From Bacteroidota bacterium (lineage in GTDB: Bacteria; Bacteroidota; Rhodothermia; Rhodothermales; UBA10348): 64,000 nucleotides of DNA. Shown here piece by piece: positions 1 to 58,693 of this stretch (position 1 is its first letter; the number at the start of each line of letters is the position of its first letter). The translations under genes and the position numbers were made by a program. Under the pieces are notes generated by a model that ran no database searches, was not told the origin of the DNA, and saw only the letters and a program-made list of their open reading frames with translations. The stretch lies in assembly GCA_027622005.1 (NCBI GenBank), contig JAQBZH010000001.1:124473-188472 (forward strand). Reading direction: 5' to 3'.

Positions 1-500
1 GCAGCATAAATTCGATTTTCGCCACCCCAGATCCCAATAATGAAATACATCGGAATGAGAGTCAGCTCAAAAAAGATGTAAAACAAAAAGATATCAAACG
101 ACGCAAAAACACCCGTAACTCCCGTCTGAAGAACCAAAAGGAGGGTGTAGTACGGCTTATGGTGCTTGCCGATGTAGGTCCAAGACGATAGCACGACGAT
201 CGGGCCTAAGAGTGTCGTCAGCATGATTAGGAGCAAATTCAAACCATCAATACCGACAAAGTATTTGATGTCGAACTGGCCCGGAAACCAGCTACTGCTC
301 AGGTCTGCCAATTGAGGAGCGGCAGCCGTCGAGATGGCCGGATCAAATCCAAGAAATAGTCCAATCGAGACCATAAAAGTGATCAAAGTGACGCCGAGAG
401 CCGACCATTTGATTGCCTTTTCGTTCGGGGCCAACAACGTCAGTAATGCACCTATAAGGGGCAGAAAGATGACGATGGAAGTAATATTCGGGATGTTCAT
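1..500 (-). CDS. nuoM: NADH-quinone oxidoreductase subunit M (N-terminal part; gene continues beyond the window start)
   Basis: Not in the ORF track because the window edge truncates it. Reverse-strand ATG at 500..498. My translation MNIPNITSIVIFLPLIGALL...FDIFLFYIFFELTLIPMYFIIGIWGG matches the NuoM/Nqo13 N-terminus. It lies directly downstream of nuoL. Confidence 0.9.
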   Translation of the reverse strand, partial: MNIPNITSIVIFLPLIGALLTLLAPNEKAIKWSALGVTLITFMVSIGLFLGFDPAISTAAAPQLADLSSSWFPGQFDIKYFVGIDGLNLLLIMLTTLLGPIVVLSSWTYIGKHHKPYYTLLLVLQTGVTGVFASFDIFLFYIFFELTLIPMYFIIGIWGGENRIYA

Positions 501-36131: not shown

Positions 36132-37553
36132 TTACCTCGATCTTTGGGATGGGTATCTGAGGACCACAATCGGGCTAAATCGACGCTGGACGATGTATTT
36201 GGGAAGAGAATCGACCGTTTTACCGACCTCAACGTAGGTGTAATCCGCCAAAACACGGGTCCAAAGTGGTCCCACGAGGCGGTATTCAAACTCAAAGCGG
36301 AGCCTGTTTTCATCACCCAAAGACTCGAAAAGGGATTTGAATCCGACCAAGCCGGCACGGTCCTGTCCAATCGAAACATTGAACCGATCGGCCAGAAATC
36401 GAAATCGAAGGTGATATTCGCTTAACGGTTGAATGCCATGATACCGGTGGAACGAGTACCAAAATTCAAACCGATTGAAAACGTACATTCGAAGCTCTGT
36501 TTCGACCGAATTTCCGCGTTCAATGGACCTCAGATCAAATCCCTCTCGCTGGGATTCATCTTCGGAAACGACCTGAGCCCGATGACTATTTACGGTGTAA
36601 AAGGCTCCAAAGTAACCCGATTTAAAGTCTGCGCTGTTATAATGGAGAGCCAATCGAAAGTGCAAACGGGCAAAATCAACGAAATTGTCGTGAGCTACGT
36701 CGGCGCCAAACATGATTCCTTGTCCGAAACCGGGTAATCGAGCCACACTGACAAATGGATTAAAAGAGAAACCCCCCGTGGAATAAGCCTGCATGCGAAT
36801 ACCCACTTCCTGGCCATCTATAGGGTTATTAGTCGAAAGGCGCTTTTTTTGATCTGAGACGACCGTCGTGGAGACCGACAGGGAAGAAAACGGTGAAGAG
36901 GTTCCCGAAAAGGGTTGAAATGACAATCTCGCACCGATCAGACCGATCGAAGTTATGTTTTCAGAAAACCCTTCTAATGCCACTGATTTTGAAGCGAGTC
37001 GGACTTCAAATCCCACGGTTTTGGCATCCAGGGCGGCTTCAGAATTGAGAAAGTTGACCAGGTGACCTGCGCCGAGCCTCGTTCGATCCAGCGGGCCGAT
37101 TCTGACATACTTTCCTCCGGTAGGAGAACCATAACGGGCGGATTGAACCAGTCGAACCAAGTCGTAAAATTCATCGGTGTCAGGCAAGTAGGCTCCGTAA
37201 ACCCCCGCCCGAACCAGCCCGGCTAGGTGGAGATAGTAGGGAGATGTCCGCCTTGAATATTCGATCGAACCGCCCGTGTACCACTGCGGCCCAACCAGCG
37301 AGAAGCCGACACCTCCCTCAAAAATCGAGGAGGATCGTCCTTTAGACCTTGCCATGTCGTCAGAGGGATCGTCCAACGACCCAAACAAAGCCGCCTGACC
37401 ATAAGAATTTGACCAACAGGCAAGGCTTATTACCCATAAAAAAGTGAAGCGGAAGCAAAACGTCAGTGAAGTGCTAACAAAACACCTTGGAAAGGGCAGC
37501 GGATGGGTTATGACGGGTATTGAGAGCATGATTGGAGCCAAAATAACGTTCAT
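36132..37553 (-). CDS. hypothetical secreted or outer-membrane protein (beta-rich)
   Basis: Long ORF (track 36132..37631). An internal ATG at 37553 gives a hydrophobic signal-like N-terminus. The alternating hydrophobic pattern and aromatic-rich C-terminal half suggest a beta-barrel. I recognise no family. Confidence 0.45.
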   Translation of the reverse strand: MNVILAPIMLSIPVITHPLPFPRCFVSTSLTFCFRFTFLWVISLACWSNSYGQAALFGSLDDPSDDMARSKGRSSSIFEGGVGFSLVGPQWYTGGSIEYSRRTSPYYLHLAGLVRAGVYGAYLPDTDEFYDLVRLVQSARYGSPTGGKYVRIGPLDRTRLGAGHLVNFLNSEAALDAKTVGFEVRLASKSVALEGFSENITSIGLIGARLSFQPFSGTSSPFSSLSVSTTVVSDQKKRLSTNNPIDGQEVGIRMQAYSTGGFSFNPFVSVARLPGFGQGIMFGADVAHDNFVDFARLHFRLALHYNSADFKSGYFGAFYTVNSHRAQVVSEDESQREGFDLRSIERGNSVETELRMYVFNRFEFWYSFHRYHGIQPLSEYHLRFRFLADRFNVSIGQDRAGLVGFKSLFESLGDENRLRFEFEYRLVGPLWTRVLADYTYVEVGKTVDSLPKYIVQRRFSPIVVLRYPSQRSR

Positions 37554-37678
37554 TTGGCTTATTCGAGCAGGAAATTGACCGGGTGTTATTGATTTACCTC
37601 GACAGCAGCCAAAACACCAAGTAGATGGCACGAAAATTGGGGTAGGCTACATATCCATTCATCTAAAACCACAGCACC

Positions 37679-39301
37679 GTGAATCGATCCTCTGCCGCCC
37701 GCCTCGGCATACCGGTCCGCCAATTGACCGGCCGCATCCTGATCCCCTTCGGACTGCTCCTAGTTGCCGTCTCCATTCTGCTCTCGATTTTTGCGACAAA
37801 CAGAGTGTACGATCGCCATTCGCAAGAACAGCAAGTTACCATTAAAACACTTTTTGAGACGCAAGCCTCCGTTCATTCATCTCGGAACGGTTTGGCCGTT
37901 TTGAGCCAAAACAGAGGCTATGAGCGGGTTTGGATCTTAAGCTCAACCGGTGATATTCTCGATTCAAACAACCTGTCGGAGATTGGGACGCATCTGGAGT
38001 CGCGGTGGTGGGACCGGCTGAAAGACGTAAACGCGGGCTTTGTTCAAGAGGATGTTGACTTCGGAAATCAAGTGCTTTCGATGACGGCGTTACTTCACCC
38101 AGAAATGGGTCGATGGGTGGTAATCGTTTCACGACCCGTATCGGTTTGGCAGTTAGTCGTGCTGTATTCGGGTCTCATTTTGATTGCGGGTCTCATTTTG
38201 TGGCTATTGACGGCTGGCTTGATCTGGGCAACTCTGGCGCAAAAAATTGCATCGCCAATAAAGAAATTGGACGAACGCACGAAAGAAATGGTCAATGGAT
38301 CGATGTTGACGGAAGCCGCGCTTGAGCGCCTGCTTGCCGAAACCACAATGAGTTTAGGCGGACATGCCACTTACGTAGTTGAACTTGCGCGAAAAGTCAG
38401 AACTGCCAACGAGCAAAGCGCCGAATCCAAAGCTCAATTCAAACAGCTTTTTGACGGACTTCCAGCTTTCTCGTTTATTCGGTCTTCAGGCGGCAAAATT
38501 GTTCTGTGTAACAAGAGACTAGCTGAAAAGCTATCGGTCGACCCAGCATGGATTGAAGGGCAACCCATGAATACGCTTAAGGGCCACATTCCCCTTAGTC
38601 ACCTTGAGACATGGTTTTCTAAAGAAAGTGCGTCTAAAGTTGGCATAAATCGGGTGGAGATGTTTCCAGCCCACGATAACGAGCTTTCCGTTCCCATCGC
38701 TCTGACCATTCAACCAATTAAATTCGAAGGGCTACCCTGTCATTTGGTGATGGTCGAAGAGATTGAACATGAAAGCGAGCATTCCGCATCCGGTTTGGGT
38801 AAAAATACGGACGGATTCGTTTCCCAAATGAACGGCTCGGGTGATGGTTCGAGTTTCTCGTGTGAACCGTCGGTGGCGTTTTCGTCGTCATCATCAGCTC
38901 TGAAGAATGGCGAACAGAGTAAGTTGTTAGACGGGCTAATGGAAGCCACCGGGCAGTTTGTCGTTGTCTTCAACGACGATGCCAAGACCATATTTTGGTC
39001 CCCAGCCGCTCAAAACATAACGGGATTAGGCCTGGAAGACATTCCAGATATGAAGTCGTTTTCGGAAAAAGTCTTTACGACTAAGCAGGAGCGTAAACTG
39101 TTTAAAACTTGGATAGACGGAGCGCCCGATGAGCGGAGTCAGGAATTAAAAGTTCAGATCCTGGACGGAACGGTTACGAGTCGATGGTATGCATCAGAAA
39201 TCGATCTGGGAATGGAAGAATCGGTAGGAGCTTTGTGGGCGTTATTGGACACGCACATTAATCGAAAGACCAATTCAAAAAGGGAACCGGTTGCACGGTG
39301 A
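37679..39301 (+). CDS. membrane sensor protein (TM-periplasmic-TM-HAMP-like-PAS-PAS) with no output domain
   Basis: 540 aa with two TM segments. It has a HAMP-like linker (IASPIKKLDERTKEMVNG) and two PAS-like blocks (FKQLFDGLPAFSFIRSSGGKIVLCNKRLAEKL; LLDGLMEATGQFVVVFNDDAKTIFWSPAAQNITG). It ends at a TGA at 39299-39301. Confidence 0.65.
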   Translation: MNRSSAARLGIPVRQLTGRILIPFGLLLVAVSILLSIFATNRVYDRHSQEQQVTIKTLFETQASVHSSRNGLAVLSQNRGYERVWILSSTGDILDSNNLSEIGTHLESRWWDRLKDVNAGFVQEDVDFGNQVLSMTALLHPEMGRWVVIVSRPVSVWQLVVLYSGLILIAGLILWLLTAGLIWATLAQKIASPIKKLDERTKEMVNGSMLTEAALERLLAETTMSLGGHATYVVELARKVRTANEQSAESKAQFKQLFDGLPAFSFIRSSGGKIVLCNKRLAEKLSVDPAWIEGQPMNTLKGHIPLSHLETWFSKESASKVGINRVEMFPAHDNELSVPIALTIQPIKFEGLPCHLVMVEEIEHESEHSASGLGKNTDGFVSQMNGSGDGSSFSCEPSVAFSSSSSALKNGEQSKLLDGLMEATGQFVVVFNDDAKTIFWSPAAQNITGLGLEDIPDMKSFSEKVFTTKQERKLFKTWIDGAPDERSQELKVQILDGTVTSRWYASEIDLGMEESVGALWALLDTHINRKTNSKREPVAR

Positions 39302-39319
39302 CGGTTAGTAACTAATAGT

Positions 39320-39610
39320 ATGAAAACTACACCAACGGCGATAGAATCTCTGGATGTGTCTTCAATCAAGGAGGCACTCGGCCAGCTCAAGGCTCAATTA
39401 TCCAAAATTCACCACGATGTTAACAATCCAGTGACCGTGGTTAGTGGCAACATTGAACTTATACGGGAGTTGGCTAAAGCTCTAGGCGTGGAGTCGGAAT
39501 TTGACGGACCACTGAATGATATGCAAGTCGCACTCGACGATCTTACCGAGCGCATAGACAAATTGATGATTGTTCGAAAAATTGTTACAAATCTGTCCGA
39601 CAAGCTCTAA
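39320..39610 (+). CDS. stand-alone histidine-kinase DHp (HisKA-like) domain protein, 96 aa
   Basis: It looks like a two-helix hairpin with an H-box (LSKIHHDVNNPVTVVSGNIELI). It is in the same reading frame as the upstream sensor ORF, separated by the TGA plus 6 sense codons. No HATPase_c follows, and porU starts 15 nt later. Confidence 0.6.
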   Translation: MKTTPTAIESLDVSSIKEALGQLKAQLSKIHHDVNNPVTVVSGNIELIRELAKALGVESEFDGPLNDMQVALDDLTERIDKLMIVRKIVTNLSDKL

Positions 39611-39625
39611 TTAACGCCCTAGACC

Positions 39626-42600
39626 ATGCGAGCTCGTATTCATCTATTAGCTCTTTCCATTCTTTTTTTGTTTCCCTTGGTGACGAAGGGACAGAGCGTC
39701 CGAACCGAAACTTCCGACTTTCTTGATGGACGCATCCAAGTCGATTATTATTTCGATTGGACCATCTCGTTGGCTGAATTTGTGGACTCATCAAGCGTTG
39801 TCCTATGGAATGAATCGGTGGTTGATCAGGCAACAGGTGGGTTTTTAAATGCCTCGACTACCATTACACTACCCGCTCTAACCCATCCAATGGTTCGCGT
39901 TGTGGAGCGACAATACGATGAGCGCGAGGTCCAGATAGCGGAGTCAGGTAGCCCAGCAGAAATCCGTGAGGTTTGGCATGCCGGACTTGGGATGTTCCAG
40001 AAAAAGCCTGTTACAGATATTGTCGTACCCGTTTTTCAAATTGATCGCTCCCAGGGTGTTTTGCGTCGCTTTAGGCACATTCGCGTCGAAGTTACCCCTG
40101 GCATCCTCAACTCGGATGCGTCAGAGCCGGCCGCCACTGCTTTGAATAGCGGACGTGCCCTTAAAAGTGGGTCAGTCATTAATAGCGCCTTATCGACCGG
40201 GCAAATATTTAGAATATCGATAGCTTCGGCAGGCATTTACCGCGTAAATCGCGCTTTTTTAATAGCTCTCGGGCTCAATCCAGATGCGATCGATCCCAAC
40301 TCGATTGAAATATTAGGAAATGGAGGAAGGCCACTTTTAGCGCTTAACGCCATCAACCGAATTTCAGATTTGAGTTCAATTCCCGTGGGGCGTACCGGTG
40401 GAGGAGATGGTAATTTTGGATCTGCGGACGAAATTATCTTTTACGCGAGTGGGCCATCGGGATGGACGTATAAGGGAGGTAAGTTTGAACACTTCATCCA
40501 CCCCTATTCCAACGACAACGCCGTATTTCTGAAAATCGGAGCTGGTTCTGGCCCCTCTCAGGCCATCCGGACTTATTCGCCGGGCGCCTCAATGCCGATA
40601 TTTTCGTCTACAACAGGACGCTATTTTCTAGATGTTGAAGAACGGGTTTGGAGTAGGGAGCACGGAAGCGGAATCGACTGGATGAGCAATACGATTCGTT
40701 CCGGAGGTAGTAGAGATTTTTTATCAGGTCTCGTTTTGCCAGGTTTGATGGCCGGGACCATCGACTATGAAACACGGGTAGCGATTGCTTCCAACCCGAG
40801 GGCTACGGTCGCCATGTTGTCGGGCAGCGCGACATTGGCACAACGAACGGCGCCGCTTGCAACGACTCAAAACGCGGAAGATGCCTCGGCATCTGAAACG
40901 ACCTTTTCCTTTCAACAGTCAGTAACAAGTGGGCAGCCTATAAATTTAACCATGCGGCTATTGAATCAATCCAATGAACCTGAAGCGTCGCTGGATTGGA
41001 TTCGAATTACATTCTCTCAAGCGCTTATCAGGGCGGGCGGGCCTCTTTATTTTACCTCTCGACCGGGTTTGAGTGGAGCACAATCCTATGAATTGAGTGG
41101 CTTTGCAGAACTACCCAAAGTGTGGGATATTACCGACGGCCAATATTCCGCTTCTTATGATGTTGGCAGCGTTTCGGGGAACCACATCATTCAACTTTCT
41201 TCGGATGATGTATTAATCCGCCCAAGAGATCTGGTGGCCTTTGTAACGGCCGACATCCAAAATTTAGTCGCGTCCCAGTCGACCCCTGCCCCAAATCAAG
41301 ATCTGCACGGTATAGCGGGATTTCCGGACATGGTTATTGTCGCTCCCGAGGCTTTCATGCCTGCCGCGGAGCGGTTGGCTGACCATCGTCGGAAGGAGAA
41401 TTTAGATGTCATTATCGTGTCTCCGACACAAATTTACAACGAGTTTTCGGGAGGTGTGCCCGATATGCGGGCCGTTCGCGACTACATGCGGTTTTTATAC
41501 TTCCGGGCGCCACAAAACGAACTCCCTCGATATTTATTGTTGATGGGTGATGGACACTACGACTTTCGCGGCAAATCAACGGTAACAAAACCGTTACTCA
41601 ATCACATTTTTCCATACGAAACGGAGGAGTCCCTGTATACCGACGGGACTTTTACTTCGGATGATTATTTTGGCCTTTTGGACACCAACGAGGGTGTTTG
41701 GACCTACACCTCGTTTACGCATCAATCTTCGGAACGGGTGGATATCGGTATTGGTCGGTTCCCGGTGCAGACTTTGGCCGAAGCCGAGGTCATGGTCAGT
41801 AAAATCATGTCTTACGAAGACCCCTCCACGTTTGGATCCTGGCGAACGCAGTACACCGCTGTCGCTGACGACGGCCCAACGGGACTTTCGGGCACTCAAA
41901 ACGACAACGATTTGCATCTGGCCAACGTGGATCAAGTGGTCGAATTAGTTGCGCGGGATTTGTATCCCCAAATCAACCTGAAAAAAATATATGCCGAGAC
42001 CTTCGAACGAGTGTTTTTGAACGGTTTTCGGATTCCGGATGCCAAGCGCGAATTCAGTGCTGCGTTAAACCGGGGGACGCTAATTTTGAATTATAGCGGA
42101 CATGGCGGCCCCGATGGTCTGGCTCAGGAAGAGATTTTTACCAAAGAAGACGCGCTTGCGTTAACCAATAAGGACAAATTGGCGGTTTTCATCACGGCGA
42201 CCTGTTCGTTTGGGTGGTGGGATTTACAGGAATCCCAAAGCGGGGCGGAACTGCTTTTACTCAATCCAAACGGTGGCGCTGTGGCCATGCTAACTACGGT
42301 TAGATTAGTGTACACATCGGGTTCAGTTGAATCGTTAAATGCCGGGCTGAATCGATCGTTGAACATTGCGATGTTCAAGACTGACGCTGACGGCTTGCCG
42401 CGGCGCCTTGGAGATGCGCTGCTCGAAACCAAAAACACGGCCGTAGGGCTTCAGGGCAACAGCCGAAAATTCAATTTATTGGGCGATCCATCGATGCGCA
42501 TCGGTCTGCCTTCAGGAAACGCTGTGGTTTCGCAGCTAAATCAAACGCCTTTGGCCACGCAAACCGGTCAAATGAAAGCGCTCGACCTCGTAACCATTAC

Positions 42601-43618
42601 CGGCGAGATCCAGAACACGAATGGTTCGACGAACGCCGCCTTTAACGGAAAGGTAGACGTTACCGTATTTGATGCTGAGCGAAACGTGCCGCTAATCGTT
42701 CGTTTTTACAATCCGACTACTTATTTCCGGCAGCGAGAAGATCTATTGTGGCGGGGCACAGTCCAGGCGGTTAGCGGCAAGTTTAACGCAGAATTTGTCG
42801 TGCCGAAGGATATCAGCTATTCCAACCAACGCGGACGCATTGCCGTTTATGCCCAGGCTCTTGATTTTCAGGCTCTCGGCTATTCGGAAAATTTTATCGT
42901 GGGTGGGACCTCCTTAAATCCACCCAATGATAATGATGGACCTCAAATTAGATTGTTTCTCAATGATTCGACCTTTGTGGCAGGTAAAACGGTCGATTCA
43001 AATCCGGAATTAATCGTCAAATTGTTTGATTCTTCGGGAATAAACACCGTCGGTACTGGTGTTGGCCATGAGATGCTGTTGTCCCTCGATGGAAACGATA
43101 GTGCGGCGGAGGATATTGGAAGCGCATTCGTTGCTGAAGCCAATTCGTTTCAGCGTGGAGAGGTTCGATGGCCGCTTAATGATCTGGAGCCGGGTTCCCA
43201 CTCCCTCAGTGTCCGAGCGTGGGACGTATTAAATAACTCAAATACGACCGAGATTTCATTTAATGTCGCAAATGATGAGGTATTGAACGTACTTAATGTG
43301 TACAACTATCCGAACCCTATGAATCGGGAAACCCGATTCGTGTTCGAACATAATCAGCCCCAAGGGACTTCTGCGGAGGTCCAAATTCGCATTTATACGC
43401 TTAGCGGACGACCGATACGAACGATACATTCGGATGAAGCGCTTCCTGAAGGAATTCTGGGAAGTGGACCCATTCAGGTCTACTGGGATGGAAAAGATGA
43501 TGATCTTGACCGTCCTGCAACCGGAATCTATCTGTATCGTTTGAGGGTCGTGACCCACGGCTCGAACGGAGACCGACAGGTTAGCGAGCACATCGAAAAA
43601 ATAGCTATCATTCGATAG
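39626..43618 (+). CDS. porU: type IX secretion system sortase PorU (C25 gingipain-like peptidase)
   Basis: 1330 aa with a signal peptide. The C25 region includes FPDMVIVAPEAFMPAAERLADHRR, YLLLMGDGHYDFRG, the clan-CD His (NYSGHGGPDG) and Cys (FITATCSFGWW). The C-terminal T9SS CTD reads YNYPNPMNRETRFVFE...GIYLYRLRV. Confidence 0.9.
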   Translation: MRARIHLLALSILFLFPLVTKGQSVRTETSDFLDGRIQVDYYFDWTISLAEFVDSSSVVLWNESVVDQATGGFLNASTTITLPALTHPMVRVVERQYDEREVQIAESGSPAEIREVWHAGLGMFQKKPVTDIVVPVFQIDRSQGVLRRFRHIRVEVTPGILNSDASEPAATALNSGRALKSGSVINSALSTGQIFRISIASAGIYRVNRAFLIALGLNPDAIDPNSIEILGNGGRPLLALNAINRISDLSSIPVGRTGGGDGNFGSADEIIFYASGPSGWTYKGGKFEHFIHPYSNDNAVFLKIGAGSGPSQAIRTYSPGASMPIFSSTTGRYFLDVEERVWSREHGSGIDWMSNTIRSGGSRDFLSGLVLPGLMAGTIDYETRVAIASNPRATVAMLSGSATLAQRTAPLATTQNAEDASASETTFSFQQSVTSGQPINLTMRLLNQSNEPEASLDWIRITFSQALIRAGGPLYFTSRPGLSGAQSYELSGFAELPKVWDITDGQYSASYDVGSVSGNHIIQLSSDDVLIRPRDLVAFVTADIQNLVASQSTPAPNQDLHGIAGFPDMVIVAPEAFMPAAERLADHRRKENLDVIIVSPTQIYNEFSGGVPDMRAVRDYMRFLYFRAPQNELPRYLLLMGDGHYDFRGKSTVTKPLLNHIFPYETEESLYTDGTFTSDDYFGLLDTNEGVWTYTSFTHQSSERVDIGIGRFPVQTLAEAEVMVSKIMSYEDPSTFGSWRTQYTAVADDGPTGLSGTQNDNDLHLANVDQVVELVARDLYPQINLKKIYAETFERVFLNGFRIPDAKREFSAALNRGTLILNYSGHGGPDGLAQEEIFTKEDALALTNKDKLAVFITATCSFGWWDLQESQSGAELLLLNPNGGAVAMLTTVRLVYTSGSVESLNAGLNRSLNIAMFKTDADGLPRRLGDALLETKNTAVGLQGNSRKFNLLGDPSMRIGLPSGNAVVSQLNQTPLATQTGQMKALDLVTITGEIQNTNGSTNAAFNGKVDVTVFDAERNVPLIVRFYNPTTYFRQREDLLWRGTVQAVSGKFNAEFVVPKDISYSNQRGRIAVYAQALDFQALGYSENFIVGGTSLNPPNDNDGPQIRLFLNDSTFVAGKTVDSNPELIVKLFDSSGINTVGTGVGHEMLLSLDGNDSAAEDIGSAFVAEANSFQRGEVRWPLNDLEPGSHSLSVRAWDVLNNSNTTEISFNVANDEVLNVLNVYNYPNPMNRETRFVFEHNQPQGTSAEVQIRIYTLSGRPIRTIHSDEALPEGILGSGPIQVYWDGKDDDLDRPATGIYLYRLRVVTHGSNGDRQVSEHIEKIAIIR

Positions 43619-43864
43619 TTTTTGACCGATACTACTGTAACATCAAGACGTAACAAAGATTTTATTGACAGAACGGATACTAGAACACGTTTTTTTCAAT
43701 CATTGTAACGGCGGAAAAGCCAGACCTGACGATTTACCTGTTAAGGTAGTTGGCTTTCCATTAAATTGAGTGCTTACAGAATGTACGTAGTGAACAGACA
43801 CGACGAATTGACGCTTGTCAACCATAACCTGAAGTCAGGTAGAATCCAGATTTTTAAGCAAACC

Positions 43865-44998
43865 ATGCATCCTATTTCGCGAATCGCGTTCTTTTTGTTC
43901 GTAGCGGCAATGCTGCTACCAACTGTAGCTTCTGCCCAGGTCGGGGGCTCTGCGGTAGTGTTCCTGAAAATTGAACCAGATAGCCGGGCTTCCGGAATGG
44001 GAAATGCAGGCGTTGCATTGGCAGATAATGCAAGTGCCATCTTCTGGAATCCGGCCGGTTTAGCTTTTCAAACAGGAACGGAAGCTGCCATTACACACTC
44101 AACGTGGCTCCCAGAGTTTAAAGCAGACTTGTTTTACGAGTATTTGATTGCTAAGCATCACGTTCCAGGTTGGGGTACGTTCGGTGCACATTTGACTTAT
44201 TTGTTTCTAGGTCAGCACGAGGGACGCGACGCACAAAACAACCCAACCGGTACATTTCGTTCTTACGATTTGGCTACAGGAATTTCCTACGGCGTAAAAT
44301 TGAATGAACGCTTTGGTGTAGGTACGAGCCTTCGCTTCATTTATTCCAATCTGGCTCCAGGCCAAACCGTTGGCGCACAGGAAACGAAAGCTGGTGTGTC
44401 CACCGCTTTCGATATCGCCGCATTATACCGTACGCGAAAGTTCGCGATGGGAGAGACCATGAAAGGGGAGTTTTCAGCTGGCTTTAACCTGGCCAACATG
44501 GGCAACAAGATTCAATACTCCGACAATGCTCAAGCAGACCCGATTCCAACCAATGTGCGCTTCGGTTATGCGTTCAAGATGGAATTCGACGAATTTAACA
44601 GCCTAACGTTAGTTACAGACTTTAATAAAGACCTAATCCACTATTCAGACTCCTCTTCGGCGGCTGACCCGTTCTATAAAGCGATTTTCACCTCGTGGGC
44701 GCCCGTGAAAGTTCGAACCAATGCACTTGCTGATGACGAAGCTCAGTACAAATCTCTCGGCGTTCTAAGCCAATTGACCATCGGAACGGGGTTTGAGTAT
44801 TGGTACAACAATTTGTTTGCCCTTCGTGGCGGGTATTTTTACGAAAACCCCAACAACGGTAATAGAAAGTACATGACACTCGGTGCTGGTGTTCGAATGA
44901 GCATTATCGGGATTGATTTTTCGTACATCTATGCCGAACAAAACTCCCCGCTTGCCAACACCATGCGCTTTTCGATGATCGTAAATTTCGAGAAGTAA
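43865..44998 (+). CDS. porV: type IX secretion system outer-membrane shuttle protein PorV (LptO)
   Basis: It has a signal peptide (MHPISRIAFFLFVAAMLLPTVASAQ) and the PorV/PorQ-family block FLKIEPDSRASGMGNAGVALADNASAIFWNPAGLAF. It is beta-barrel-like and ends in an aromatic-rich strand. The track ORF starts at 43766. Confidence 0.9.
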   Translation: MHPISRIAFFLFVAAMLLPTVASAQVGGSAVVFLKIEPDSRASGMGNAGVALADNASAIFWNPAGLAFQTGTEAAITHSTWLPEFKADLFYEYLIAKHHVPGWGTFGAHLTYLFLGQHEGRDAQNNPTGTFRSYDLATGISYGVKLNERFGVGTSLRFIYSNLAPGQTVGAQETKAGVSTAFDIAALYRTRKFAMGETMKGEFSAGFNLANMGNKIQYSDNAQADPIPTNVRFGYAFKMEFDEFNSLTLVTDFNKDLIHYSDSSSAADPFYKAIFTSWAPVKVRTNALADDEAQYKSLGVLSQLTIGTGFEYWYNNLFALRGGYFYENPNNGNRKYMTLGAGVRMSIIGIDFSYIYAEQNSPLANTMRFSMIVNFEK

Positions 44999-45084
44999 TT
45001 TCGTAAGGCGATGATGTTGGTGGTACCTTTATGATTCCGCCACGCAGCTAGGTGTAAAGGAAACCACGGATTGACGGGTATTAC

Positions 45085-48000
45085 ATGGCTCTCTTTTCCC
45101 CGCCTTCAGGTGGGCCAAAACCGTTTTGGATTGAATTATCACGGCTTTTGAAAGGCGTGACTTTAATAACGAGACGATTGATTATTCCGGATACCCTGTC
45201 TAAAAAATTCGGATATATTTTAGCCATTCTGCCCTTCATAGGCCTTACGCCAATGGCATGGAGCCAGCAGCGAATTGCACCCGAAGTGGTCAATGTGGTG
45301 GCTTTGATGGTGGAGTTTCAGCCCGATTCATCGCGATTTACAACAGGAAATGGGACGTTTGATGGGCCCCTGTTTAAAGGAGTCGAAGCTCCCCGGTTAG
45401 ATCCGCTTCCGCACGATGATTCGTATTTCAGCGCTCATCTGCGGTTTTTGGAGCATTACATCGCCAAAGTATCGGACGGTCGAACTGAAGTAAAAAGCTT
45501 TGTACTGCCCCATATCATCCGAGTCTCTCATGAAATGGGTTATTACAGTCCTACGGGCAAGGAGGCCGGTGGTGATCCAGAGTTATCGAAATTGGCTCGA
45601 ATGGTAAAAGAGGCTTGGACGGCTGCGGAATCCCAAAACGTTCAACTTCCGCCTGGAATTACTTCCTCAAACACGGCCTTTGTCCTGTTTCACGCTGGAG
45701 TTGGACGAGATATCGAGCTTTTAGGGACAACACTCGATAAAACCCCGGAAGATTTACCATCGCTGTACTTAGGCTCTGAGACCTTATCCCGTTTGGGAGC
45801 TGGTTCATTGATCGTTGATGGGGTTTCTGTCACTAACACGATGGTTATTCCTCGAACGGAATCCCGTTTAGGATTCGATTTCATTGCAGAGAAGCCATTT
45901 CTCATTGAGTTGTCGATCAATGGATTATTAGCGGCGAGCTTTTTGAATTATCTCGGGGTGCCTGATTTATTCAATTCACAAACAGGTGAAAGCGCCATTG
46001 GTCCATTCGACGTTATGGACGCTCTCGGTATTTTTGCATTTGGTGGTCTATTTCCACCTGAGCCCAGCGCTTGGACCAAACAGTTCGTCGGTTGGGCCGA
46101 AGTCAACACTTTTCAGGATGCAACCCTTAAATCGATCTCCCTTCGACACAGCGGTGATGCTAGTCGGAATGAGGTTGCCAAGGTCCCAATTTCTGACTCC
46201 GAATACTTTCTACTTGAAAACAGGCATCGTGACCCGGAAAATGACGGAATTCGGATGCAAGTGTGGAAGGATGGTGTGACTTCAGAAGTCGTGTTTCCCA
46301 ACGCGGATCCGAAATTTAACGATGTTACTATATCCGGATTCGAAGGGGGCGTTGTAGTTGCGGTGGATCAATACGATTTCGCTTTACCAGGAGGCGAGGA
46401 TGAGTTCGGAAACCCTCTTGTCGGAGGAATACTGATTTGGCATATTGACGAAAACCGAATTCGTGAGGGGATTTTGACCAACCGGGTCAACGCGGATCCA
46501 GCCAGCAGAGGCATTGATCTTGAAGAGGCGGATAGTGGGCAGGACATCGGATTTAGTTCTAATGGCGGTCTCTTTGGCCCACGATTCGATCTAGGATCTC
46601 CGTTTGATTTCTGGTTTCAGTCAAATCCGGTAAAGATTCGAACCACATCAGGCCGTGAAATCGCGCTCTATGAAAACAGGTTTGCGACCGACACCTTTCC
46701 GTCAAGTCATGGAAATAACGGTACGTCCAGTTCAATTTCGATTTCAAATATTTCTGATCCGGGGCCAGAAATGACCTTCATATTGGATCAAAACGATTCG
46801 TCCATTTGGAAGTCTGAAAGTCAGCAAATGGTGTCTTTTCCGTCGGGCCCAATTTCTGGGGAGTCCACGTTGGGATTGTTGCCATCGACTTCCAGCGAAC
46901 CTAATCCATTCGTGTTCGGAGGTGTCCAAGGGCGAGATAGCGGCCTTTGGACTGCTCAGACGCCGTATCGTGGTGTCGAAGCTATTCGGCCGATTACAGG
47001 TCCCTTCGGACTGATTGCAGTACAAAATGATGCGTTGGTGTGGATAGACGCTTCCGGCCTACTTCGGAGCGCCTCTTTCGGGGCGACGGGGGGATCCGGT
47101 CGCCCCACGTCCAACTTGGCCTGGTATGCGGAAGGATCACAATACCATGTACGGCTTGGGGTTATGTTACCCAGTGGCCCGGTAATGGCCCACGGAATAA
47201 TCGGACCCAACCAGTCCTTTACCGTTTCCTTAGAGACCGTTTCCGCACCCGTAAAACGCATCGTTCAGCGTTCTCGGAGCACGGCTACTGCCTTCATATT
47301 GATTGGGAACGAGTTGTTGGATGAAGCCACCGGAAGAAAGATTGATTTAGAATTGCCCGTAATTGCGGGTAACGACCTTTCCACGGCATTTTCGTTTGAT
47401 GTTGGACTTGATCGGGATGGTTGGATGGTGGCGTATACGAACCCAGTGACTTCAACCCTTCAAATCGTGCATGAATCAGGAGAAAGATTCACGACTTCGT
47501 TTTCAGCCTGTGTTCCTGGCCATCCCGTTTTTGCCGACTTGAGTTTAGATGCCAGAGGAGATGTTTTGGTTAGTTGCGGGGATGAGCTTTTTGGATTTCA
47601 TGCCAACGGCGTCTTGATGGGCGGTTTTCCATTTAAATTGAAAGGCGCGGCCACCTCGGAGCCAATTTTTGTTGAGCAGTCTGGCTCAAGTCTAAAATAT
47701 GCCATGGTTCAAACGGATCTTGGAAACTTGGATGGATTCGCTCTAGGGCAAAGTTTACAGCGCATAGAAGGATTTCCGCTTTCGATTGGAAGTCCCTCAG
47801 AAACGGCGCCGTTCGTTTGGGATAATCACATTCTGACGCTTTCCGGAAATGGGACCTTAAAAACGTGGTCGACCATCGCCGGGGCAAGCCTTTCATCCAG
47901 AAATATTGTGGGACGGGACTTGGCGTATGTAATGATCAACACTCCTCCGGACAAAACCGTCTCCGGAACGCTCCTGACGCAATCAGAAACGTACAATTGG

Positions 48001-48258
48001 CCGAATCCGATTTCCGAAGGTCGAACTCACATTCGATTTATGACCACCGAAGCGTCAGAAGTAGTTGTAACGATTGTGGATACGACCGGGCAATTGGTAG
48101 AAAAATTCGAATCGGTTTCCACCATTGGGGGCCTTCCTGCGGAGATCATGTGGACCACCGGGGCGCAAAGTGGGGTGTATATCGCCCGGGTTCAGGCTCG
48201 TGCAGTCGGTGGGAGTAAGAGCGATACCCGTCTAATTAAAATGGCCATTGTTCGATGA
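45085..48258 (+). CDS. secreted M6 (immune inhibitor A)-like domain protein lacking HExxH, with beta-propeller-like repeats and a T9SS C-terminal domain
   Basis: 1057-aa ORF. A TTG at 45178 gives a signal-like start. It has M6-like blocks (VVALMVEFQPD, FVLFHAGVGRD, LNYLGVPDLF...GPFDVMD). Repeated G-FP motifs occur in the C-terminal half. The CTD reads YNWPNPISEGRTHIRF...GVYIARVQA. Confidence 0.7.
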   Translation: MALFSPPSGGPKPFWIELSRLLKGVTLITRRLIIPDTLSKKFGYILAILPFIGLTPMAWSQQRIAPEVVNVVALMVEFQPDSSRFTTGNGTFDGPLFKGVEAPRLDPLPHDDSYFSAHLRFLEHYIAKVSDGRTEVKSFVLPHIIRVSHEMGYYSPTGKEAGGDPELSKLARMVKEAWTAAESQNVQLPPGITSSNTAFVLFHAGVGRDIELLGTTLDKTPEDLPSLYLGSETLSRLGAGSLIVDGVSVTNTMVIPRTESRLGFDFIAEKPFLIELSINGLLAASFLNYLGVPDLFNSQTGESAIGPFDVMDALGIFAFGGLFPPEPSAWTKQFVGWAEVNTFQDATLKSISLRHSGDASRNEVAKVPISDSEYFLLENRHRDPENDGIRMQVWKDGVTSEVVFPNADPKFNDVTISGFEGGVVVAVDQYDFALPGGEDEFGNPLVGGILIWHIDENRIREGILTNRVNADPASRGIDLEEADSGQDIGFSSNGGLFGPRFDLGSPFDFWFQSNPVKIRTTSGREIALYENRFATDTFPSSHGNNGTSSSISISNISDPGPEMTFILDQNDSSIWKSESQQMVSFPSGPISGESTLGLLPSTSSEPNPFVFGGVQGRDSGLWTAQTPYRGVEAIRPITGPFGLIAVQNDALVWIDASGLLRSASFGATGGSGRPTSNLAWYAEGSQYHVRLGVMLPSGPVMAHGIIGPNQSFTVSLETVSAPVKRIVQRSRSTATAFILIGNELLDEATGRKIDLELPVIAGNDLSTAFSFDVGLDRDGWMVAYTNPVTSTLQIVHESGERFTTSFSACVPGHPVFADLSLDARGDVLVSCGDELFGFHANGVLMGGFPFKLKGAATSEPIFVEQSGSSLKYAMVQTDLGNLDGFALGQSLQRIEGFPLSIGSPSETAPFVWDNHILTLSGNGTLKTWSTIAGASLSSRNIVGRDLAYVMINTPPDKTVSGTLLTQSETYNWPNPISEGRTHIRFMTTEASEVVVTIVDTTGQLVEKFESVSTIGGLPAEIMWTTGAQSGVYIARVQARAVGGSKSDTRLIKMAIVR

Positions 48259-51200
48259 GAAATCAGTTCCGAAATATGCTGGTTTTTCTCGTGATGGGTA
48301 GCGCTTGGTTTTCCGAAGCCACCGCTCAGGAATCCCTCGCGTGGTACGATTACGTTCGTAGCGACCTCAAGTGGTATACGATCGAAACGGAGCACTTTTT
48401 AGTCCATTTCCATTCGGATGAGACGGGCGAAGGAAGTCGAACAGCGCGTGTGGTTTCCGAAATCGCAGAAGACATGTACGGCCCCATCACGGATCTATAT
48501 GATTTTGAGATGGACCAAAAAGTCTCTTTTGTTTTAAAGGACTATGAGGACTACTCCAACGGGGCAGCCTACTTTTTCGATAATATCATTGAAATTTGGG
48601 CGCCTGCCCTCAATACTCCTTTTCGCGGCGACCATAATTGGCTCAGGAACGTGATTTCTCATGAGTTCACGCATATGGTTCAGGTGCAAAAGACCATGAA
48701 AACCACGCGTAAGCTGCCTTTCATGTACCTGCAGTTTTTGAATTATGAAAAGGTTACTCGGCCCGATGTGTTGTACGGTTTTCCAAACGTATTGGCATCG
48801 TACCCCATTCCGATTCTAAACAATCCGGCTTGGCTAGCGGAAGGAAGTGCTCAATATCAACGAGCATCCTCTGACTATGACCGGTGGGATTCGCATCGAG
48901 ATATGATGCTTCGAACCCAGATTTTGGCAGGTGAAGAACTCACCCTCGCTGAGATGGGTGGTTTTTACTCCCACACGAGTCTGATGAGGGAATCCGTGTA
49001 TAATCATGGATTCGCCTTCAGTCTATACCTCGCCAATCGATTTGGCGAAGATGGGCTTAGAACGTTAAGCGCCGAACTTGGGAAGTGGTCTAACTGGAAT
49101 TTTGAGCAAGCCGCTTTTGACGCTTTTGGTATTCGCGGCGAAGATATTTACACCGAATGGATTACCAGTCTAAGGGCCTTTTACTCCGAAAATGCGCCCC
49201 CAGGAACGGATTCCGAGGTTAAATACATTGAGCGTGATGGGTTTAACAATTTTTACGCCCGCGTATCTCGCGACGGATCAAAAGTAGCTTACATCTCCAA
49301 TAAGGGAGAAGATTTTAGTTCAACCGGGATCTGGATCCACTCCCTGACAGAGGAAAATGGTTCTCCGAAAATGACAGATGTGCATGGATCGGCCGGAATC
49401 AGTCCTTCGAACGCGCGTTTGATCTTATCGGGCGAAGAGCTAGGGTTCGGATCCGATTATACTTGTTCGCTCGGGCACAAATTGCTATCGGCCGTTTCGG
49501 GGCCAATCGATTGGATTTCCAATACAAAACTGGTGTATTCAAAGTCAAAAGACACGCCCGAAGGGTATTTGTATTTGGATTTGTGGTCCTATGACATTGA
49601 AACAGAGGAAAAAGTACAACTTACTCGCAACGCCCGGGCTTCGTCCCCATCCGTCTCAAAGGACGGTTCGTTTATCGCATTCGTGACCCAATATGACGGT
49701 ACTACCAATCTGCAATTGCTAGATGTCGCGTCTGGTGAAACGAAGGCGTTAACCAATTTCGTCGATGGCTCGCAGGTTACGGAGCCCGTTTTCGACCATT
49801 CCGATGAGTGGATTTATTTTGGACTCAGCATCGGCCATGGCAGGGATATTTATCGGGTGAATCGGAATACGAAGTCCATTGAACCAGTCATGGCAGAGGT
49901 TTGGGATGATCGGTCGCCGGCGTTCGATCAAGCCGGAAATATGGTTTTTTCATCCGATAGAAGCGGAATTTTCAATTTGTATCGACGGGAGTCTTCTGGT
50001 GAGATCGTGCAACTTACCGTCGAGCAGGGTGGCGCATTTATGCCGTCGTTTGGCCCGGATGGTAATATCGTATACAGCCGATATGAAGCCTCGGGATATA
50101 AAATAGCGGCAATCAAACCCGAGGTGCGCGAAACATCGCCGAGTTATCAAACGCCGCCGTTTCTAGCTAAAACTGCGTCGAAAGGGGATATATCTGCTTT
50201 TGAGCAAGCATTAAATAGCGCCGATGACGCCGCCATCAGAACGTTTTCGGCAGCGGAGATGGAGTCTGTTAAAGCTTACCGTCCGGTATTTACATCGGTA
50301 AGCTTTTTGCCGGTGCTGCGCCTCGACCAGTATGTTTCTAGGAAGCGCAGCCGAACTGATGTTCGGTTAAAAGATCGAACTCGAGCGGAAACCTTGTGGC
50401 GGAATACCAAGGTTGGAATGTATGCAAGCACGCGTGAAGTACTCGGCGGATTCACCTTTTTTGGCGGCCTGTTGCTTGGACCTGGATCAGGAAACGCAAA
50501 ATCACTTCTCGATGGATTGTCGCCTTCAAACCTGCTCGATTTGGAGCGCGATGCCATTCTGCAGGTAGATTACGCCAAGGGACTTCCTTTCATCCATAAA
50601 AGATGGTCACCTCAGTTTTCGGCTCAACTTTTTAACATCCGTCGAAACGTCGAAAACGGACTCGCAATCGAGGAATTTCCATGTACGGCCTGTTACCCAG
50701 ATTCGACCCTTGCTGATCTAGCTTACGATCTGTGGGAAGTGGACTTTACCGCAAAAAGCAAGATCAACCGGGTCTTGCTGGCGCAAGTTGGCTATCGCTA
50801 CAGCCCTTATCGAGTAACTACCAAGCGATTCTTTTCGGAGGAATTGAAGCAAGCCATTCCGGCCAGTTCGTCTAAATACTATATCGGACGGGCGTTCCAC
50901 GCTAGTCTCATTTTTGAATCCTTTCACCCTTATCGGGACATGAACGTAGTTCCCACGGGTATTCGCGCTGAACTCAGTTACGAACGAGAGTCAGGGCGGT
51001 TATTAGAAGCATTTAGCATCCGTGATGGCCTATTAACGCCTCTGTACGCCAACGCCACCGTCAACCGCATATCATTTGATGTCAAGGGAGGTCTCCGATT
51101 GCCCGGCTGGCCAGGGGAAGGAGCTCACGGACTTGGCCTACGCCTGAGGACGACCGCCATCATCGGCAGAGAAGTCGATGACTTCTATAACGACTATGTC

Positions 51201-58627: not shown

Positions 58628-58693
58628 GGCTGTGCGGGAGCATCACGTCGTGACGAAAGAGGTTAAAAGCTGGACGATCTGAAAGAAAACATC

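Follow-up and report, generated by a model that had tools for sequence, protein, structure and literature searches.

[quoted passage not shown] The initial annotation had described a sensor ORF of 540 aa closed by a TGA (39299-39301) and a second ORF starting at 39320 in the same frame after 6 sense codons, and the ORF translations agreed on each point: both starts fall at 2 mod 3, and the codons between the genes are cgg tta gta act aat agt. The remaining two frames of the spacer were likewise found closed, one by TAG (ggt TAG) and the other by TAA (gtt agt aac TAA). ORF A starts with GTG, and ORF B starts with ATG and stops with TAA. The ATG of porU, at 39626, lies 15 nt past the B stop with porV further downstream, and a conceptual readthrough of A into B would be 643 aa long (540+1+6+96), both as annotated. 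A promoter and terminator scan of 37300-45200, made with a tool that omits Bacteroidota-type promoters, gave counts at or below the shuffled expectation and is therefore uninformative on operon structure.

Table 1. Features of the A-B-porU-porV locus in window coordinates
Feature	Position	Strand	Evidence
Gene A, 540-aa membrane sensor without transmitter domain	37679..39301	+	ORF, Pfam, AF2, Foldseek
A TM1, residues ~20-39, ILIPFGLLLVAVSILLSIFA	37736..37795	+	hydrophobic stretch in translation; inside AF2 helix 13-64
A predicted periplasmic alpha/beta sensor domain, residues ~41-155	37799..38143	+	AF2 model
A TM2, residues ~156-186	38144..38236	+	AF2 helix 156-207
A HAMP-like two-helix segment, residues ~187-226, unconfirmed	38237..38356	+	AF2, alignment
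A PAS1, residues ~253-361	38435..38761	+	PAS_8 and PAS_9 sub-threshold; AF2 PAS fold 264-361
A disordered Ser/Gly-rich linker, residues 364-413	38768..38917	+	AF2 pLDDT <50; alignment variable
A PAS2, residues ~414-523	38918..39247	+	Pfam PAS, TIGR00229, AF2
A invariant Glu536-Pro537 in C-terminal tail	39284..39289	+	columns invariant in 20 homologues
TGA, genuine stop of gene A	39299..39301	+	second assembly and orthologue stops
18-nt A-B intergenic spacer	39302..39319	+	frame open here, closed in relatives
Gene B, 96-aa stand-alone HisKA-type DHp helical hairpin without CA	39320..39610	+	Pfam, AF2, Foldseek
B H-box HHDVNNP	39410..39430	+	His32 phospho-acceptor position, Asp33 = H+1, Asn36 = H+4
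porU, T9SS sortase	39626..43618	+	NF033707 971.5 bits; Peptidase_C25 328 bits
porV, T9SS outer-membrane protein, start codon uncertain	43766..44998	+	NF033710 288.4 bits; PF19572 127 bits
T9SS-dependent M6-like inactivated metalloprotease, type A sorting domain	45085..48258	+	NF052323 743 bits (cut-off 600)

Gene A Encodes a Membrane Sensor Without a Transmitter

The translation of A is identical to the NCBI/ENA protein P0010, and its architecture runs from TM, periplasmic alpha/beta domain and TM through HAMP-like helices, PAS, disordered linker and PAS to a short tail. In the AF2 model, the predicted periplasmic domain (helix 71-79, strands 81-151) lies between two hydrophobic helices; it gave no Pfam match and is rich in residues that are invariant in the homologue alignment (W110, W111, G129, E142 and R145). 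Invariant positions were also found in TM2 (I167, L168, L172, W175 and L186). Of the TM-HAMP-PAS-PAS order originally assigned to A, the second PAS domain was recovered by HMM (PF00989, 30.1 bits against a cut-off of 22.6, residues 417-498; TIGR00229, 25.9 against 22.9), the first was sub-threshold by HMM and clear in the model, and HAMP was left without HMM support. For PAS1, a profile search matched the PDB entries FixL 1d06 and 3bwl. Pfam HAMP had no match in A at E<=1; where HAMP would be expected, the AF2 model has two helices (~187-207 and 212-226) in which P193, L197 and D198 are invariant.

Foldseek of A retrieved tandem-PAS proteins at E 1e-13 and aligned A with the WalK model 9a5d_A (TMq 0.40 over 395 columns), and the NCBIfam WalK profile NF033092 aligned weakly to residues 166-300 (19 bits against a family cut-off of 725). 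A resembles the N-terminal two thirds of WalK-type kinases in the succession of its parts: TM, extracytoplasmic alpha/beta domain, TM, HAMP-like segment, PAS. It differs in stopping after the second PAS, with neither DHp nor catalytic domain (CA), and no Pfam match to HisKA or HATPase_c was found in A. A is the front end of a WalK-like membrane sensor and finishes immediately beyond PAS2. Its C-terminal tail is variable and disordered (pLDDT <50 over 528-540 in AF2) apart from the Glu-Pro pair, which could possibly serve as a docking motif.

Gene B Encodes a Stand-Alone DHp Hairpin

Against Pfam HisKA (PF00512), B scored 25.8 bits (E 1.1e-5) and narrowly missed the gathering score (26.9). Values of 29.5, 31.9, 34.2 and 35.3 bits were obtained for orthologues in this position, and precomputed PF00512 matches are on record for most members of the B family. 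The AF2 model (pLDDT 86) is the two-helix hairpin of a DHp domain (H13-55/H58-95), with His32 about five turns into helix 1. It is preceded by 12 N-terminal residues that are variable and predicted to be disordered, and the C-terminus lies 1 residue beyond helix 2, so that a pseudo-catalytic C-terminal domain is absent. The earlier description of B as a complete DHp hairpin drew support from the model and from the orthologues above the gathering score, and was weakened by the score of the window copy itself. Among the top Foldseek matches of the model were the CpxA DHp (probability 0.95-0.97) and a Burkholderia histidine-kinase DHp (>0.9), with E of only ~0.4-1 and with viral fusion cores and other hairpins scoring alike; this comparison of a predicted structure is compatible with a DHp, not diagnostic of one. 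A PDB sequence search with the B profile gave nothing significant, the best match being a coiled-coil adaptor (E 0.038), and sequence similarity to Spo0B, ChpT or PhyT was not detectable in it. Of a histidine kinase, B has just the minimal DHp domain, one hairpin lacking the ATP-binding catalytic domain, and its dimer is expected to form a four-helix bundle.

The H-box IHHDVNNPV, read in the initial annotation as keeping the acceptor His and the H-D-x-x-N arrangement, was confirmed at residues 30-38 of B (nt 39407-39433), and the pattern H-[E/D]-x-x-[T/N]-P is present. H-boxes were extracted from 79 loci with a search pattern in which His and Pro were preset. In columns that the pattern left free or fixed in part, H+3 Asn and H+4 Asn were invariant (79/79). 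The H+1 residue was D in 64 loci, E in 7, A in 4 and N in 4. His32, Pro37, Gly and Asn44 were invariant in a separate, free alignment. HisKA kinases depend on the H+1 acid for kinase activity only, and on the H+4 Thr/Asn for phosphatase activity only (Willett & Kirby, PMC3510030). The H-box HE/DxNNPL..GN was also found in full-length kinases of other phyla (L083-L087), all from Myxococcota and Bdellovibrionota.

Profile searches placed B in a family of short proteins. Among 1.84 billion representatives, 227 matches were obtained, of which the best 150 were all of 61-265 aa, bar one unrelated 403-aa repeat protein, and included no full-length kinase; a further search gave 436 matches, the best 120 of which were all of 83-197 aa. 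The absence of a HATPase_c-like sequence, as first annotated, held in Pfam searches of A, B and the conceptual fusion. No kinase-type HATPase_c was found in the operon or anywhere in the window, where the sole GHKL match is MutL (58667-60508), nor within +/-10 kb in about 95 loci by gene table or homology. No Response_reg match was found in the window. A literature search of incomplete coverage (CA-less DHp; T9SS with histidine kinase) returned no published description of a DHp-only B family.

Conservation of A and B Across Rhodothermales

The comparison set comprised about 90 related loci overall, with 26 non-redundant loci carrying A + B and 78 loci fetched through B. Each Rhodothermales locus found has a single copy of B, and the genes always run LonN-like, MBL and/or sensor A, B, [porU], porV. 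In the sensor-A lineages, A mostly replaces MBL, and the window and its closest relatives are without LonN too. B occurs without A in most lineages and is therefore not a fragment of A, and its input changes with the lineage: some have sensor A in trans, some have a receiver domain, mostly degenerate, joined in cis to the N-terminus of B, and some have no input domain. The receiver fused to B is recognizable in L059 (Response_reg, 46.8 bits); by approximate alignment, the phospho-acceptor Asp was lost in about half of the fused receivers and the acidic pair also in many. A cis phosphorelay through the fused receiver was considered and rejected on these losses: the fused domains are mostly pseudo-receivers and therefore give it no support. 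A is a lineage-specific input placed beside B, and the B family illustrates one signalling core that exchanges its input modules.

The split arrangement of A and B recurs across the 26 non-redundant loci, with A identity as low as ~35%. Saturation was seen at synonymous sites (pS 0.69-0.96 vs pN 0.08-0.45), and because this held in all but two comparisons, a single dN/dS ratio was usable for B (~0.05, from the closest B pair). Judged by these comparisons, A and B are distinct proteins, each translated on its own and each conserved under strong purifying selection. B is a conserved signalling part, neither a broken kinase nor a read-through product. The initial reading of the locus as a sensor plus a free DHp module was supported, with B belonging to an order-wide family of CA-less DHp proteins.

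The A/B Junction

Programmed readthrough or recoding of the TGA, one of the possibilities first raised, would produce the 643-aa TM-HAMP-PAS-PAS-DHp fusion, alone or beside the separate products. It is favored by the window spacer, which is open in frame, and by a frame shared in 15 of the 26 non-redundant loci against 8.7 expected. As a conserved mechanism it is contradicted by variation in the stop, the frame and the spacer: A orthologues terminate at the same place, 11 of them with TGA, 8 with TAG and 7 with TAA; A and B are out of frame in 11/26; of the 15 in-frame loci, 9 contain further in-frame stops; and spacers are 6-177 nt long (0 in L012, for which the start of B is an uncertain call) and differ in sequence as well. 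The 12 N-terminal residues of B and the tail of A are variable and predicted to be disordered, and neither stop identity nor in-frame continuation nor a junction peptide is conserved. Fused A-B or B-CA forms were absent from 25 A homologues, from the best 150 of 227 and from the best 120 of 436 B matches. The 15/26 in-frame excess was rejected as evidence of readthrough; the loci are not independent in their phylogeny, and extra stops are present in most. The excess may be the trace of an ancestral fusion or just the absence of indels, and close relatives share the frame because indels are absent. The original caveat that a shared frame at one locus has a 1-in-3 expectation by chance was upheld, and an in-frame TGA by itself is evidence neither of readthrough nor of decay. 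Readthrough is regarded as very improbable. Even harder to credit is that the locus is a decayed or pseudogenised histidine kinase, as had also been proposed, or that a mistake in sequencing or assembly interrupts what is an ordinary full-length kinase. A series of TM, HAMP-like, PAS and PAS followed by DHp does resemble the front of a normal kinase, and full-length kinases sharing the H-box exist in other phyla, but both genes are kept across the order under purifying selection and their split form is retained in the 26 loci. A sequencing error at the TGA was excluded because an independent assembly (L010) showed 0 differences over all 1932 nt, TGA included. No CA remnant follows B because porU begins 15 nt later.

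Proposed Function of A and B

We infer that B serves an unlinked response regulator as a CA-independent hub of phosphatase or phosphotransfer activity, with A as its modulator. A separate A sensor with a B DHp acting on such a regulator was the best overall explanation, held with about as much confidence as doubt. According to this model, the B dimer would not autophosphorylate; its target would be the receiver domain of a response regulator from another locus, served either by dedicated HisKA-type phosphatase activity or by His phosphotransfer in the manner of Spo0B, ChpT and PhyT. A would control the activity or availability of B by protein-protein contact, possibly via its Glu-Pro tail; from adjacency and similar evolutionary rates only, we infer the A-B interaction. 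The isolated DHp domain of EnvZ reportedly still dephosphorylates OmpR~P. Among DHp-type proteins that have no kinase activity, PhyT (PMC5898713) and ChpT (PMC3433190) are examples that can carry phosphate from one receiver to another; proteins of this type also sequester or dephosphorylate a regulator.

Two other accounts of B chemistry were weighed against this model. B could be the acceptor half of a split kinase, with a CA supplied in trans by a protein encoded elsewhere, an orphan CA domain or another kinase, B~P passing its phosphate to a regulator and A acting as a gate. The invariant His and the H+1 Asp/Glu in 71/79 loci fit a working autophosphorylation site, and complete kinases carry the B-type H-box, therefore the conservation of this H-box could reflect phosphorylation in trans by a catalytic domain. 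Rv0600c/Rv0601c of M. tuberculosis and the reconstitution of EnvZ from domain A and domain B are said to be precedents. Kinase functions are spread over separate polypeptides from neighbouring or related genes in these M. tuberculosis proteins and in the split CheA Hik36/Hik43 of Synechocystis (PMC7656254); the review PMC3544749 lists Rv0600c/Rv0601c simply as two sensor kinases and mentions Rv0600c-Rv0601c-tcrA. Known split kinases, however, have adjacent halves and possess a catalytic half (in M. tuberculosis adjacent, together with the regulator), whereas no kinase-type HATPase_c is linked to the A/B loci, either in the window or within the flanks of the about 95 loci, and a linked regulator is likewise absent from every locus. 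Moreover, the H+1 acid was lost in 8/79 loci and the phosphatase determinant, H+4 Asn, in none. A split kinase is considered unlikely. We think still less of a decoy or adaptor without phosphochemistry, in which B would heterodimerise with the DHp of a canonical kinase (RetS/GacS-like) or sequester a regulator, and so tune another two-component system, with A or the pseudo-receiver setting its availability. That B is a dimerisation hairpin only would fit such a role; the degenerate state of most receiver-like domains fused to B is a hint that regulation works through binding and not phosphorylation, and PhyT likewise sequesters its regulator (PMC5898713). Against it, His, Asn-Asn-Pro and Gly-Asn are without exception in the Rhodothermales loci, which exceeds the constraint usual for a binding surface.

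Possible Link to Type IX Secretion

The conserved adjacency, taken by itself, suggests, in line with the initial annotation, that the output of A and B concerns the T9SS attachment machinery. In every Rhodothermales locus extending that far, among the 78 fetched through B and those reached through sensor A, porU or porV lies downstream of B, usually as the next gene; two genes intervene in L093, and L037 has a large gap. The M6-like protein downstream of porV (TIGR04183, 25.9 bits) is a conserved neighbour as well. A target outside the T9SS, with the LonN-like and MBL-fold (lactonase-like) genes as the partners of B and the porU/porV position as inherited order, falls short of being probable while deserving real weight. 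These upstream genes are equally conserved neighbours of B and precede it in most loci having upstream sequence, and in Salinibacteraceae the MBL-B gap is ~55 nt versus a B-porV gap of at least 200 nt. Synteny across Rhodothermales extends over the entire region, including rho, radC, glyS and nadA; gene order is strongly conserved region-wide, and the porU/porV adjacency is therefore weak functional evidence. On the other side, the clade of the window is without MBL and has the B stop 15 nt from the porU start, B remains beside porV even where porU has relocated, and the downstream neighbours are all T9SS-related. This rival bears on the target of B, not on its chemistry. The broadest proposal, that B founds a class of minimal (~85-100 aa) free DHp proteins acting throughout Rhodothermales as a CA-independent cytoplasmic hub for His phosphotransfer or phosphatase activity that controls the T9SS attachment-complex genes, with its input swapped in evolution, is offered as a tentative and rather doubtful one.

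Comparison With Known Systems

B was likened to Spo0B (Bacillus), ChpT (Caulobacter) and PhyT (Sphingomonas), which are dimeric DHp hairpins with a conserved His and no autophosphorylation. Spo0B keeps a C-terminal alpha/beta pseudo-catalytic domain. ChpT keeps one too (PMC3433190) and PhyT is membrane-bound (PMC5898713), whereas B is the hairpin only (83-130 aa in the family). Domain A of EnvZ has the same HisKA H-box pattern as B (His, H+1 Asp, H+4 Asn), but it is a piece of a complete kinase made for experiments, and B is a natural, conserved, free-standing product. PorX/PorY-SigP of Porphyromonas gingivalis is a two-component-derived, T9SS-associated system with orphan components that are encoded apart from one another (PMC4800418). 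PorX is a receiver-PglZ regulator. PorY, described as a full histidine kinase, is set apart by its domain content from A, which is without a transmitter, and from B, which is without CA. Unlike A and B, PorXY are not encoded beside porU/porV.

B would be a natural histidine-kinase DHp living alone as a conserved protein, a step beyond the Spo0B/ChpT-like proteins that keep a pseudo-catalytic domain, and it is a testable candidate T9SS regulator outside Bacteroidia. Cultured hosts are Rhodocaloribacter litoris (GQ464_001920), Salinibacter altiplanensis, Salinivenus and Rubrivirga litoralis.

A and B are separate genes

The gene for the membrane sensor (A) and the gene for a stand-alone HisKA-type dimerisation/phospho-acceptor (DHp) hairpin (B) lie in one frame, six sense codons apart, and the 18-nt spacer has TAG and TAA in its other two frames. 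The coordinates and sequence details of the A/B junction in the initial annotation, including the start of porU 15 nt beyond the B stop, were found to be correct, and its remark that a shared frame is weak evidence, being a 1-in-3 event, holds. Proteins exactly matching A and B are on record at NCBI and ENA, annotated as a ‘PAS domain-containing protein’ and a ‘hypothetical protein’, respectively, from a Bacteroidetes MAG. A second, independently generated ENA assembly (L010) shows no difference across the full 1932 nt, TGA included, which excludes a sequencing error at this codon.

Features of the A/B locus and its surroundings, with the predicted (AF2) elements of A
Feature	Position	Strand	Remarks
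499-aa protein	36132-37631	-	divergent from A; relative position kept in most Rhodothermales loci
ORF A	37679-39301	+	540 aa; GTG start; TGA stop 39299-39301
A, TM1			first element in AF2 order
A, small periplasmic alpha/beta domain	residues 71-151		predicted
A, TM2 then HAMP-like helices	helices ending 207 and spanning 212-226		HAMP unconfirmed
A, long helix	between HAMP-like helices and PAS1
A, PAS1	residues 264-361
A, Ser/Gly-rich disordered linker	residues 364-413
A, PAS2	up to residue 523
A, disordered tail	17 residues after PAS2
A, Glu536-Pro537	39284-39289	+	invariant in 20 homologues (36-88% identity); tails ...KREPVA, ...GEPSVPSEDS
ORF B	39320-39610	+	96 aa; ATG start; TAA stop
porU	starts 15 nt after B stop	+	NF033707, 971.5 bits; identity secure
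porV	downstream of porU	+	NF033710, 288.4 bits; identity secure
M6-like inactivated metalloprotease	45085-48258	+	T9SS-dependent; type A sorting domain; NF052323, 743 bits
1124-aa protein	48240-51614	+	downstream of porV; TolB/PD40 beta-propeller and Tricorn-like repeats

Related loci were gathered via B homologues, A homologues and a scan in which each species was represented by one genome. In these loci A and B were again distinct genes, even where A identity fell to about 35%. Among 26 non-redundant loci with both genes, A ended in TGA (11), TAG (8) or TAA (7), and the spacer measured 6-177 nt (0 in L012, where the start call of B is uncertain). The frames of A and B differed in 11 of the 26, and further in-frame stops were found in 9 of the 15 in-frame loci. 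These 15, against 8.7 expected by chance, form a surplus that could reflect phylogenetic non-independence or the trace of an ancestral fused gene; readthrough was rejected as its cause because of the extra stops. The spacers of the window and its nearest relatives align base for base, and these relatives share the frame of the window because no indel separates them. No B motif was found in the A homologues, and the conceptual 643-aa fusion, when run against Pfam, gave no gain over the separate ORFs. Given the stops and frames of the orthologues, the lack of a B motif in A and the lack of long B matches (see below), TGA readthrough, a sequencing error and recent decay of a histidine kinase, all of which had been considered initially, are excluded. 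Synonymous sites were saturated (pS 0.69-0.96; pN 0.08-0.45), the divergence rates of A and B were similar, and the closest B pair gave a dN/dS of about 0.05.

A is a PAS sensor without an output domain

The architecture TM-HAMP-PAS-PAS proposed for A was borne out for PAS and remained unconfirmed for HAMP. Pfam gave one PAS domain over its threshold (30.1 bits, residues 417-498) and another under it (about 253-350), and no Pfam match was obtained for HAMP (E ≤ 1), HisKA or HATPase_c. The AF2 model had a mean pLDDT of 72.5, and with it Foldseek retrieved tandem-PAS proteins (PpsR, 1e-13; DosP; FixL; LOV-PAS-HK) and, over 395 columns, a WalK model. An output domain is missing from A; the sole feature beyond PAS2 is the invariant Glu-Pro in an otherwise variable tail, which could serve as a short motif for docking or recognition. 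In two MAG loci (L016 5053-6763; L025 4937-6603), A was broken into two overlapping ORFs with B intact, and this break may come from a frameshift, faulty assembly or a genuine loss of A.

B belongs to a family of DHp proteins lacking a catalytic domain

AlphaFold2 predicted B as one helical hairpin (helices 13-55 and 58-95, mean pLDDT 86), preceded by about 12 disordered and variable residues. HisKA was matched at 25.8 bits (E 1.1e-5; gathering score 26.9), and the B orthologues scored above the gathering score (29.5-35.3 bits). When the model was used in Foldseek, the CpxA (4biw) DHp domain and that of a Burkholderia kinase (7ltq) were near the top with probabilities >0.9; the E-values were non-significant, as expected for a hairpin query. 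The PDB sequence search with B gave no significant match. Taken at the level of the family, the sequence evidence identifies B as a HisKA-type domain. Some B proteins bear the JGI name ‘nitrogen-specific signal transduction histidine kinase’.

When 1.84 billion representative proteins were searched with a profile built from nine B sequences, 227 matches were obtained (E ≤ 1e-3). The best 150 of these were all short, save an unrelated 403-aa repeat protein (P0045): they were stand-alone proteins of 61-160 aa, or proteins of 174-265 aa with a C-terminal B module, and no full-length kinase was among them. A further search, seeded with more divergent members of the family, gave 436 proteins, the best 120 of which were all of 83-197 aa. 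In the fused forms, B follows a receiver-like domain at the N-terminus (Response_reg, 46.8 bits in L059; faint or undetectable elsewhere), in which the phospho-acceptor Asp is gone in about half and the acidic pair in most.

The H-box of B is HHDVNNP, numbered here from the phospho-acceptor His32. Three residues, His, Pro and a subsequent Gly, were set by the extraction pattern; the columns of Asn H+3 and H+4 were free or partly fixed by it, and both residues were invariant in all 79 non-redundant loci, and the H+1 acid was swapped for Ala or Asn in eight of them. In a free alignment, His, Pro, Gly and the Asn after Gly were invariant and the two H-box Asn residues were at least 90% conserved. 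As judged from these alignments, the B family is shown to retain the residues found in functional HisKA H-boxes.

Gene order in Rhodothermales

The host lineage of the B family is Rhodothermales (Bacteroidota), including Rhodocaloribacter litoris (GQ464_001920). Among 78 loci reached via B (74 came from the one-genome-per-species scan, four via remote members of the family), porU or porV lay downstream in every locus reaching past B, usually as the adjoining gene; two genes intervene in L093 and a large gap in L037. The loci fetched via A agreed. The general order is LonN-like, MBL-fold and/or sensor A, B, porU (in part of the loci) and porV, followed in many loci by the M6-like T9SS-dependent protein; this gene and the 1124-aa gene are widely conserved 3′ of porV. 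The 499-aa protein of the window had no Pfam or NCBIfam match. The LonN gene, a stand-alone Lon N-terminal domain (LON_substr_bdg), precedes B together with the MBL gene in most Rhodothermales, and the MBL-fold gene has YtnP-lactonase-like similarity (198 bits, under the cut-off); in L045 the two genes occupy 8274-9925.

Three input states were observed. The window clade has A in trans and a stand-alone B and lacks the MBL gene; LonN too is absent from the window and the members nearest to it. In Rubricoccaceae and Rubrivirga, B is fused to a pseudo-receiver and accompanied by the MBL gene and an A-like sensor, and in other lineages the MBL gene is followed by receiver-B or bare B. In Salinibacter, Salinivenus and Longibacter, a bare B of 83-85 aa lies immediately 5′ of porV. 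Since the input differs across lineages while B persists, B is the conserved core and A a lineage-specific addition.

Beyond Rhodothermales, Myxococcota and Bdellovibrionota have the B-type H-box in complete kinases, which combine HisKA and HATPase_c and in some cases a receiver. In Latescibacterota, it is found in a 242-aa GAF-HisKA protein (L090 9539-10267) that has no catalytic domain, so CA-less DHp proteins with different input domains exist outside Rhodothermales.

Possible action of B and its link to T9SS

Neither a HATPase_c of kinase type nor a receiver domain was found in the 64-kb window, where ORFs of at least 120 aa were covered by Pfam or the precomputed gene table, apart from a few short or overlapping candidates; the 1124-aa gene was covered by the gene table and NCBIfam. 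The sole GHKL/HATPase_c match was MutL (58667-60508, +), which is not to be taken for a kinase catalytic domain. The initial claim that no such domain accompanies B thus stood for both ORFs, their conceptual fusion and the surroundings, and neither HATPase_c nor a receiver was seen adjoining B in the gene tables of related loci.

The H+1 acid of HisKA kinases is required for autokinase activity only, and Thr/Asn at H+4 for phosphatase activity only (PMC3510030). The kinase-inactive DHp proteins PhyT (PMC5898713) and ChpT (PMC3433190) serve as phosphotransferases or sequestering factors. We infer that B may be a phosphatase or a His phosphotransfer station for an unlinked regulator: B would dimerise, the dimer would face the receiver domain of that regulator, and A would presumably modulate B through contact. 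This reading is favoured because the H+1 kinase determinant is relaxed, the H+4 phosphatase determinant is fixed and there is no linked CA domain; the same points make a split kinase, with its CA supplied in trans, less likely. In its proposed action, B would most resemble DHp-type phosphotransferases or the isolated EnvZ DHp; it fits neither the Spo0B/ChpT architecture, as it has no pseudo-catalytic domain, nor a canonical histidine kinase, as it has no CA domain. No description of the B family was found in the literature on DHp-only or CA-less proteins and on T9SS with histidine kinases.

Adjacency suggests a connection of B to T9SS, since 15 nt separate the end of B from porU in the window and the gene neighbourhood is kept across the order. 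The LonN/MBL genes upstream are, however, equally conserved and synteny of the whole region is generally high, so that B may be tied to these genes, or its position may reflect general synteny only, which weakens the T9SS link.

An NtrC/NtrX-like sigma-54 response regulator is encoded on the same strand, several genes and 2-4 kb 5′ of B (farther in a few), in many Salinibacteraceae loci (L033, L038, L045, L048, L056-L058, L063, L065, L067, L069, L072, L073, L075, L076, L078-L080, L082 and L088). The L045 protein matched NF051870 at 463 bits, under the cut-off, and in the ORF map of L045, the one locus inspected, no kinase adjoined it. This regulator is a possible partner of B, to be regarded as a lead and not a finding. 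In two Rhodothermales loci (L091 1-2395; L092 1-1630), the LonN-MBL-B block is preceded at a distance of a few kb by a phage-tail-like cluster (T4 baseplate, gp19 tube, sheath), which is probably a contractile injection system with no relation to A and B.
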